Of a DNA stretch of 64,000 nucleotides, positions 547-3,262 are shown in pieces. The DNA is from a virus. Its lineage: Duplodnaviria; Heunggongvirae; Uroviricota; Caudoviricetes. Numbering within the stretch: the first letter of the stretch is position 1; each line of letters begins with the position of its first letter. The position numbers and the translations under genes were made by a program. Location of the stretch: IMG/VR virus record IMGVR_UViG_3300037467_003075, positions 64,001-128,000 of that record, one strand, 5' to 3'. The notes beneath the pieces were generated by a model. It was not told the DNA's origin, ran no database searches, and saw only the letters and a list, made by a program, of their open reading frames with translations.

Positions 547-632
547 TATTACTAGGCAGGGTGGCGTATCCTGCATCTCTTCTAACTTGCCGTTGGCAAG
601 CGTGTAGGGAGCCTTTCCTACCTCTAGTAATA
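547..632 (-). ncRNA. Putative structured RNA (four-way junction) directly 3' of tRNA-Ala
   Basis: Closing stem 547-555/624-632 (9 bp) encloses hairpins 556-560/570-574, 586-591/595-600 and 605-608/617-620. Strand is inferred from operon context. Confidence 0.35.
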
Positions 633-2231: not shown

Positions 2232-2307
2232 TGGTAAGGGATAACGGTACTGCCCCGCTTTCTTGTGGTTCAAAGCCACACGCATTTAACTTTTATGCTA
2301 ATCCCCT
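2232..2307 (-). tRNA. tRNA-Gln(UUG) with non-canonical D- and T-loops, CCA encoded
   Basis: Acceptor AGGGGAT/ATCCCTT, anticodon arm TGTGG-CTTTGAA-CCACA. T-loop is GGCAGTA and the D-loop AAAAGTTAA lacks GG. Confidence 0.8.
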
Positions 2308-2381
2308 ACATATAAATTTTCTGGTCAACTTCATCTTGCTGTCGTTCCTTCATTTTGTTTTCCTCTCTTTCTTATATTACA

Positions 2382-2410
2382 ATTATAATATATTTCCCTC
2401 GATTTGTCAA
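2382..2410 (-). promoter_or_regulatory. Sigma-A promoter for the tRNA/dcm operon
   Basis: TTGACA (2410-2405), 17 bp, TATAAT (2387-2382). Confidence 0.88.
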
Positions 2411-2453
2411 GGAATTAATTTGAAGTTTTTTTATGTGGCCATAGGGGGTCTTA

Positions 2454-2951
2454 TTAAAAAATGAGACCCATCGACCTATTTGTTATTGCTTTATCTCCAA
2501 ATTGTTTTACTGCCTCAATATCGTGTGCCGTTGCCGCTTCCTCGGCTGTAAGATAACATCCTAACCACTTGGTTTTTCCGTCTATCTTAATACATGCCCT
2601 ATATGGCTTTTTTAAATTCCCATAGTAATGAACACCCTTGAATCCACATGTTGCAATTATATTTCTAGGCAATGTTTTATCGGGTCTTCTTGCGGCAGAT
2701 ATATTACATGAATGATGGCTAAATGCGATATTATTTATATCGAAGAAAAGTTCTTCTGGATTTTCACTATCAAGCCAGGGTTCCTTGTGTTCAATTGAAA
2801 AGTTGTTAATATCATTAATTTCTTCGCCGCATTGATAACAGTTTGACATTCCACATTTTTTAGCAAGATTAAAAATAATACTCTTTCTAAGTATGTGACT
2901 AGCCTTGCCAAATGACATACCTAATTGCTCTGATTTTTTTTGATTACTCAT
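2454..2951 (-). CDS. HNH endonuclease with C-terminal AP2 DNA-binding domain (homing-endonuclease-like)
   Basis: CYQCG..SIEHKEP..NIAFSHHSCN HNH module; GFKGVH..YRACIKIDGKTKWLGCYLTAEEAA AP2 module; lies within the tRNA cluster. Confidence 0.82.
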   Translation of the reverse strand: MSNQKKSEQLGMSFGKASHILRKSIIFNLAKKCGMSNCYQCGEEINDINNFSIEHKEPWLDSENPEELFFDINNIAFSHHSCNISAARRPDKTLPRNIIATCGFKGVHYYGNLKKPYRACIKIDGKTKWLGCYLTAEEAATAHDIEAVKQFGDKAITNRSMGLIF

Positions 2952-3001
2952 TTTTAAGCCCTCGCTTTTTTATAGCAATCGTAATATTAAATTACGTGCT
3001 A

Positions 3002-3089
3002 TGTGTCGGACGAGATTTGAACTCGCAAGAGGTCATACCTCTACTACTTTCACAGAGTAGCGTGTACTGCCATTCCCACCACCGACACC
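3002..3089 (-). tRNA. Class II (Leu-like body) tRNA with His anticodon GUG, no encoded CCA
   Basis: GTGTCGG/CCGACAC acceptor, A73, D-loop GGAATGGCAGTA, CTACT-CTGTGAA-AGTAG, variable arm AGAGG-TATGA-CCTCT, T-arm GCGAG-TTCAAAT-CTCGT; a G lies at -1 (3089). Confidence 0.75.
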
Positions 3090-3096
3090 ATGTTTA

Positions 3097-3150
3097 GACC
3101 CTAATTCAATGATTCACAGTCATCTGCGTTACCATTACGCCATAGCCACC
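3097..3150 (-). pseudogene. Truncated tRNA-His(GUG): 5' part only
   Basis: GGTGGCTA (with G-1), D-arm GCG-TAATGGTAA-CGC, GATGA-CTGTGAA-TCATT; no TTC loop or acceptor 3' strand follows. Confidence 0.7.
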
Positions 3151-3262
3151 ATAATATTACAAGTTACTGTGTAGAAACTTATTCTTCTTTGTCTTTTTAT
3201 TAATATGCTATCACTTGAAATTGAATTTTTTAGGGGAGCCGAAAGCCCCCCATTATATTCAA

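Follow-up and report, generated by a model that had tools for sequence, protein, structure and literature searches.

The DNA analysed here, a stretch of 64 kb referred to as the window, belongs to a viral record of 157.8 kb in which about 25 tRNAs cover 19 amino acids, with one additional class II tRNA. On the minus strand of the window, a class I tRNA-His gene is divided within its T-loop by an insertion that holds this class II tRNA, whose anticodon is GUG, and a gene for a predicted HNH endonuclease (Table 1). The insertion opens with the leader TAAACAT, followed by a G at position −1 and the class II tRNA, a 50-nt spacer, and finally a 165-aa open reading frame (2951–2454). The earlier note on this DNA had proposed an insertion into the histidine gene, and the position of the class II tRNA between two matching gene halves bears this out; the size of the insertion, its HNH gene, and the actual 3′ end of the tRNA-His are additions to that account.

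Table 1. Features of the interrupted tRNA-His locus, in order along the minus strand.
Feature	Position	Strand	Evidence and remarks
tRNA-His 5′ part, class I	3097..3150	(−)	direct reading, Rfam RF00005, Bacillus-phage tRNA-His homology
Insertion of about 646 bp in the tRNA-His T-loop, between TC and GACC	2451..3096	(−)	flanked by matching gene halves; boundaries uncertain by a few bases
Class II tRNA, 87 nt, plus G at −1 (3089)	3002..3089	(−)	ARAGORN, fold, covariance model, alignment with 29 tRNA-Leu, acceptor comparison
TAGCAC	2996..3001	(−)	direct reading; resembles the His acceptor 3′ strand TAGCCAC minus one base
Perfect AT-rich hairpin, 6-bp stem, 5-nt loop	2980..2996	(−)	between class II tRNA and HNH gene; overlaps the 15/18 repeat
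15/18-base copy of the 18 bases spanning the His gene 5′ boundary (3142–3159)	2972..2989	(−)	repeat family D1, spacing 170
HNH-AP2 homing endonuclease gene, 165 aa	2454..2951	(−)	RBS GAGGG 7 bases ahead of ATG; Pfam, PHROG
tRNA-His 3′ part	2434..2446	(−)	T-stem 3′ strand CCCTA, acceptor 3′ strand TGGCCAC, discriminator A73 (2434)

The 5′ part corresponds to roughly two-thirds of a class I tRNA-His. Behind the G at −1 (3150), the stub proper (3149–3097) comprises the acceptor 5′ strand GTGGCTA, an intact D-arm and anticodon arm with the anticodon GTG at 3117–3115, the variable loop GAAT, the T-stem 5′ strand TAGGG (3103–3099), and the first T-loop bases TC. The Rfam model RF00005 aligns to it with 29.6 bits, the T-arm being absent from the alignment. 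Homology with Bacillus-phage tRNA-His extends over about positions 8 to 53 of the stub; in BLAST comparisons with Tsamsa-type phages, positions 8–52 are 83–89% identical and the alignment carries the match on through the T-stem 5′ strand. All features of a normal tRNA-His 5′ part listed in the earlier note, including G−1 and GUG, can thus be read on the minus strand, but the gene described there as broken off continues elsewhere. Seven bases past the stop codon of the HNH gene, and on the same strand as the stub, begins a segment (2446–2434) whose CCCTA pairs with the TAGGG of the stub in 5/5 positions and whose TGGCCAC pairs with GTGGCTA in 7/7 (one G·U). Together these form a 12-mer with 11 Watson–Crick pairs and one G·U to the T-stem and acceptor strands of the stub; it is the sole fully complementary 12-mer on either strand of the window, as against a mean of 0.025 in shuffled windows. 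When stub and 3′ part were joined in silico, ARAGORN returned a full tRNA-His for 31 of 88 junction choices. The mutual complementarity of the two halves and the restoration of a tRNA-His upon joining indicate a gene split in its T-loop (TC / GACC) rather than a truncated one.

This 3′ part also settles the role once given to TAGCAC, the short motif directly behind the class II tRNA, which had been regarded as the lost His acceptor strand. In a fold of 158 nt, TAGCAC pairs with GTGGCTA (chance estimate of about 0.003). As the true 3′ end it was rejected, because the segment at 2446–2434 beyond the HNH gene is a far better match. Another echo of the His gene, the 15/18 repeat, stands just upstream of the HNH ribosome-binding site; an agreement of at least 15/18 arose in about 1 of 100,000 simulation trials. 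The AT-rich hairpin lies at the same place, and the 9-mer GTAATATTA, noted along with it, occurs five times in the window against 1.1 expected. Two further candidates were considered and discarded. A T-armless tRNA-His completed by TAAACAU would form just 5/7 pairs, the level expected by chance, and a remnant of a prophage attachment site is at odds with a locus in the middle of the genome within a tRNA array.

The open reading frame of the insertion matches the Pfam HNH family (E 1.7e-4) and, weakly, AP2; it also matches PHROG 23251, annotated as ‘HNH endonuclease’ (E 6.5e-32). Its membership in a homing family and its position inside a split gene are observed; its activity as an endonuclease is predicted. 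Full-length homologues of about 50% identity are found inside the tRNA arrays of the Bacillus phages Kioshi and JBP901, and the tRNA content next to these homologues differs between the two related phages. IMG/VR yielded no allele in which the tRNA-His is intact and the nuclease is missing. For SegB, a homing endonuclease of phage tRNA clusters, published work describes how tRNA genes nearby are co-converted and how microhomology located at the 5′ end of a tRNA leads to segmental rearrangement (PMC2330249, PMC13096335). As with SegB in T4/T6, the gene described here is a free-standing endonuclease gene embedded among tRNA genes (PMC2330249, PMC13096335), with microhomology rearrangement scars at a tRNA 5′ end and neighbouring tRNA genes that would travel with the nuclease gene. 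Unlike SegB, which is of the GIY-YIG type and lies between genes, the HNH-AP2 gene is located inside a tRNA T-loop together with a putative surrogate for that very tRNA, and the cleavage specificity is a prediction.

The class II tRNA was called by ARAGORN as tRNA-His(gtg). Its cloverleaf (3088–3002) has the anticodon at 3053–3051, A73 at 3002, and no encoded CCA. All 25 of 25 pairs are Watson–Crick, and the minimum free energy fold is the cloverleaf itself (−29.8 kcal/mol), with an acceptor stem of 7 bp, a T-stem of 5 bp, a D-stem of 3 bp, and a variable arm of 17 nt. The complete class II cloverleaf with GUG, A73, and G at −1 reported earlier from inspection is therefore confirmed by both program and fold. 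The molecule departs from the class I shape of a tRNA-His, which has a variable loop of 4–5 nt and a D-stem of 4 bp, and from the allo-tRNAs, whose 12-bp branch is split 8/4 or 9/3, since the split here is 7/5. The idea that the variable-arm hairpin serves as a second anticodon arm was rejected, as the loop (UAUGA) has just 5 nt. The general tRNA model of Rfam assigns it 18.8 bits, compared with 32–54 bits for the other long-arm tRNAs of the genome.

Long variable arms occur in other tRNAs of this and similar phages. A tRNA-Ile(UAU) of 96 nt in the same genome (58666–58761, outside the window) has a long variable arm with a 7-nt loop, CAGAUUA, that includes GAU. Phage contigs with the Ro-like gene mentioned below carry a tRNA-Lys(UUU) of 83–85 nt and a tRNA-Cys(GCA) of 82–90 nt, both with a long variable arm (L001 2466–2548 and 5811–5892; L004 5390–5473; L005 3029–3113; L061 2625–2714). 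The tRNA-Lys on L001, the one that was parsed, has a class I D-arm, and several diverged contigs share the Lys form.

The body of the class II tRNA is of the leucine type. A covariance model built from this tRNA alone was searched against 151 genomes (phylum of the MAG labelled Bacillota), a sample that served as the source of cellular tRNAs while the host of the phage is inferred from its nearest phages only. The best 30 matches comprised 26 tRNA-Leu (10 GAG, 10 CAG, 4 UAG, and 2 CAA; top score 64.3 bits) and 4 tRNA-Ser, with no tRNA-Tyr and no tRNA-His. These matches and the alignment with tRNA-Leu agree with the Leu-type body recognised in the earlier note. The tRNAs of related phages reached at most 50.7 bits against up to 64 for bacterial tRNA-Leu, which suggests that the donor was captured from outside the phage. 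The long variable arm, the Leu-type D-loop (GG-AA..GGCAG), and the 3-bp D-stem are features of tRNA-Leu, and the D-stem, base 26, the anticodon stem, and the T-arm nearly coincide with those of cellular tRNA-Leu(GAG). Compared with 29 distinct tRNA-Leu, however, five departures fall in columns that are at least 90% conserved: a G at the base aligned with A14, an extra U after GGCAG, U35 in place of the A35 common to the Leu isoacceptors, the first base of the variable arm, and the absent CCA. The A14-aligned column holds A in 29/29 tRNA-Leu, and the extra U in the D-loop is likewise unlike all 29. Since U8:A14 and the geometry of the D-loop are important for LeuRS (PMC9976931), departures at these points fit a shift away from leucine identity.

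The ends of the molecule, in turn, are of the histidine type. The acceptor helix has a GUG 5′ end and a CAC 3′ end, and the class II tRNA and the split tRNA-His have in common an encoded G at −1, G1-C72, U2-A71, G3-C70, A73, and the anticodon loop CUGUGAA. In the collected set of 188 distinct tRNAs, a GUG start is present in 7/9 other tRNA-His, 0/42 tRNA-Leu, and 4/136 others; acceptor helices of the form GUGU...ACAC are found in phage tRNA-His from several contigs and from the Synechococcus phage S-CRM01. The class II tRNA thus copies the resident gene where HisRS reads it and differs everywhere else, including the whole region of the broken T-arm.

Which synthetase would charge such a molecule can be considered from the known determinants. 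Bacterial HisRS recognises G at −1, C73, and the anticodon; LeuRS relies on A73, A15-U48, G18G19, A20a, and contacts in the D- and T-loops and leaves the anticodon unused; for bacterial TyrRS the determinants are A73, G1-C72, G34, U35, and the long arm (PMC9976931). For histidine, the class II tRNA has the encoded G at −1 (3089) and the anticodon GUG, but the discriminator is A (3002) instead of the C73 that would pair with the extra G. Bacterial HisRS normally requires this pair, and an unpaired extra G may be lost to RNase P (PMC4284800). Because A73 cannot pair with it, RNase P may remove the G at −1, and its retention is uncertain. Histidyl-tRNA synthetase is a class II enzyme that approaches the tRNA from the side of the variable arm, with which a long arm might clash. 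For leucine, A73, A15-U48, and G18G19 can all be read, and LeuRS disregards the anticodon (PMC9976931, PMC11028032). For tyrosine, all of A73, G1-C72, G34, U35, and the long arm are present, while position 36 is G instead of the A36 of tRNA-Tyr and the body is not of the Tyr type. The molecule would therefore combine part of the histidine marks, most of the leucine marks (with a changed D-loop), and all the listed tyrosine marks, a combination that at the level of sequence is compatible with more than one amino acid.

The weight of A73 in this comparison deserves attention, as the earlier note had treated it as a cue for LeuRS. A73 and a Leu-like core are indeed present; yet the resident split tRNA-His itself combines G at −1 with A73 (2434), so A73 in the class II tRNA is like for like and by itself no pointer to leucine, and the acceptor helix is of the His type. 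A73 also occurs in Bacillus-phage tRNA-His. Whatever enzyme charges the A73 tRNA-His of this phage and of the Bacillus phages may accept the class II tRNA as well. The Bacillus-phage family (Tsamsa-like, Herelleviridae; L007 5247–5317, L008 293–365, and L107–L110) has C1-G72, no G at −1, and A73, and is conserved although both classical bacterial histidine determinants are missing. Neither Thg1 nor HisRS nor a CCA-adding enzyme is encoded in the phage genome.

Apart from the split gene, no tRNA of the array other than the class II one has the anticodon GUG. As a reader of CAY codons, it would keep the tRNA set at 20 amino acids. The record has an estimated completeness of 88%, and an intact tRNA-His could therefore sit in the missing part. 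Histidine codons amount to 19.2 per thousand. Among the leucine codons, CTT is used most often; a tRNA-Leu(GAG) is missing from the array, so that a recently mutated tRNA-Leu(GAG) is conceivable. In the neighbouring Ro-like gene, five His codons stand opposite His or polar residues, and never Leu, in 31 homologues; a reassignment of the codon was rejected on this ground, the five His codons examined showing no sign of it.

Several other elements surround the locus. Just past the His 3′ fragment lies a consensus sigma-70 promoter (12/12; TTGACA, 17 nt, TATAAT; 2382–2410, minus strand), followed downstream by a 15-codon open reading frame (2306–2353, minus strand) whose stop runs into the beginning of a tRNA-Gln(UUG)-like gene (2235–2307, minus strand). 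The latter scores 45 bits with Rfam, is missed by ARAGORN, and has an unusual T-loop region. A skipping-rope RNA (RF02924, 75 bits; 548–631, minus strand) adjoins a tRNA-Ala gene.

Relatives of the arrangement were sought in several collections. A pattern for a class II tRNA with the same D-loop and GUG loop gave one chance match only in IMG/VR and, in 185,579 species genomes, chance matches and intron-bearing archaeal tRNA-His only. Exact and acceptor-anchored patterns returned nothing from IMG/VR or a chance match within a terminase gene. Relatives of the Ro-like protein in IMG/VR, JGI metagenomes, and GenBank phages are at most 56% identical, and the arrangement was in none of them.

The reading that we favour, and hold to be somewhat more probable than all others taken together, is that the resident tRNA-His fell victim to a homing cassette, which provides in its place a divergent, Leu-derived surrogate that reads the CAY codons. 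To judge from the sequence, a mobile cassette of about 646 bp, made up of the HNH-AP2 gene and the class II tRNA(GUG) upstream of it, interrupted the class I tRNA-His of the phage. The HNH endonuclease would target intact tRNA-His genes, and the insertion would abolish its own site. The cassette tRNA, differing as it does throughout the T-arm region, would escape cleavage and would take over as CAY reader of the phage. By descent it would be an alloacceptor-remolded tRNA-Leu. The Leu-type body and the split state of the only other GUG gene are what is expected of remolding; remolding by duplication of a resident gene finds no counterpart, the genome having neither a tRNA-Leu(GAG) nor a close paralogue. 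Several points count against a surrogate: the arrangement is a single instance; leucine and tyrosine determinants are present; A73 leaves the G at −1 unpaired; the long arm might hinder HisRS; the general tRNA model gives a low score; the array, with CTT as the top leucine codon, has no tRNA-Leu(GAG); the record is incomplete; and the origin of TAGCAC and of the 15/18 repeat within the cassette is unexplained. The three functions offered in the earlier note fare differently, in that a His replacement is now favoured, a Leu-charged mistranslator is possible, and a decoy is without specific support.

A different outcome would follow if the class II tRNA were charged by LeuRS, or by TyrRS, and placed leucine or tyrosine at CAY codons during infection. 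The core with A73, A15-U48, and G18G19, the indifference of LeuRS to the anticodon (PMC9976931, PMC11028032), the bacterial tyrosine determinants, complete except for A36, and an unpaired G at −1 that may be trimmed all speak for such mistranslation. It is nevertheless unlikely, as both the acceptor helix and the G at −1 reproduce those of the resident tRNA-His, with nothing similar in the 42 tRNA-Leu, the D-loop departs from tRNA-Leu at invariant points, and no tRNA-Tyr stands among the best 30 matches. The His codons of the Ro-like gene (five examined) align with His or polar residues, never Leu, in its 31 homologues, and a proteome-wide change from His to Leu would harm phage proteins, including the adjacent HNH motif. 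A purposeful dual identity, in which A73 and a Leu-type, Tyr-compatible core lead to partial charging with leucine or tyrosine, ambiguous CAY codons, and thus a mobile mistranslation device that travels with a homing endonuclease, is a doubtful elaboration, less probable again. The class II tRNA might also be an inert passenger, i.e., a non-functional hitchhiker or a by-product of rearrangement driven by the nuclease, such as a tRNA-Leu(GAG) that was captured and underwent A35U by chance, in a phage that has lost its own tRNA-His and relies on that of its host. The single known instance, the 18.8 bits with the general tRNA model, the odd base aligned with A14, the array that lacks a tRNA-Leu(GAG) even though CTT is the top leucine codon, and the other scrambled pieces of the His gene in the cassette are all compatible with this; we consider it improbable as well, if hardly to be neglected. 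Its acceptor and variable stems differ from those of every tRNA-Leu and still all 25/25 pairs are Watson–Crick, which implies compensated changes under structural selection. Several histidine-type marks are common to the class II tRNA and the interrupted gene, and a random anticodon change would yield GUG in 1/9 of cases, its landing in a His gene being a further coincidence.

Splicing and assembly error are both very improbable. Phage group I introns likewise carry an endonuclease gene inside the interrupted gene, so that the 646-bp insertion might be removed, by itself or by an enzyme, with a normal tRNA-His restored in the RNA. However, no group I or group II intron model of Rfam matched the insertion at E values up to 10, its non-coding bases number about 150 in all, 88 of which are a tRNA, the T-loop is no known bacterial intron site, and simple joins lack the canonical 7-base loop TTCRANN unless a base is added. 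As the record is a metagenome-derived viral contig, a chimeric join or a GAG misread as GTG might be suspected. Yet in the independent Logan assembly SRR35147169, compared for proteins and gap, the encoded Ro-like and HNH proteins are identical and are separated, as here, by 311 bases; the His halves fit exactly across the insertion, which a random misjoin would not yield; and one anticodon base has no bearing on the histidine-type acceptor.

Set beside known systems, the case may be described as alloacceptor remolding (PMC4783518) combined with the invasion of a tRNA array by a homing endonuclease. As in the remolding of metazoan mitochondrial tRNAs (Sahyoun et al. 2015, PMC4783518), the ancestral gene for the anticodon is lost or broken nearby. 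It differs in that it concerns a phage array and the passage from a class II to a class I isotype, with an acceptor end rebuilt to the new identity, and in that the replacement sits within the disrupted gene and in linkage with a homing endonuclease, with no donor copy of tRNA-Leu(GAG) remaining. The yeast mitochondrial tRNA-Thr derived from tRNA-His (Su et al. 2011, PMC3113583) is similar in that its body betrays descent from another isotype; that tRNA, however, belongs to a codon reassignment with a dedicated synthetase, whereas no reassignment is seen here and the phage encodes no synthetase. An anticodon at variance with the body family is also known from the allo-tRNAs (PMC5389517), from anticodon variants of tRNA-Leu (PMC11028032), and from bacterial cases (PMC11415595), in line with synthetases for Ser, Leu, and Ala that disregard the anticodon (PMC5389517, PMC11028032, PMC11415595). 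In contrast to those tRNAs, the one described here is a 7/5 cloverleaf rather than 8/4 or 9/3 and has acquired acceptor marks of the amino acid that its anticodon denotes. Finally, phage tRNAs that evade host tRNA nucleases (van den Berg et al. 2023, PMC10264068) likewise differ in structure from the host tRNA for the same codon, but they do so by point changes in the anticodon loop, whereas here the whole core is exchanged, with no known involvement of a nuclease directed at tRNA-His.

The case shows how nuclease genes reshape the tRNA arrays of phages. It also represents a natural experiment on tRNA identity, in which a leucine core, histidine marks in the acceptor and anticodon, and the full set of tyrosine determinants come together in one molecule that can be tested with three synthetases. 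If the reading is true, this would be, to our knowledge and within a limited literature search, the first natural long-arm tRNA for histidine. Should the surrogate work, the locus would present a homing endonuclease that breaks a gene and yet brings along a disguised replacement. The cost of homing would thereby be limited in a third manner, in addition to splicing, as in introns and inteins, and insertion between genes.
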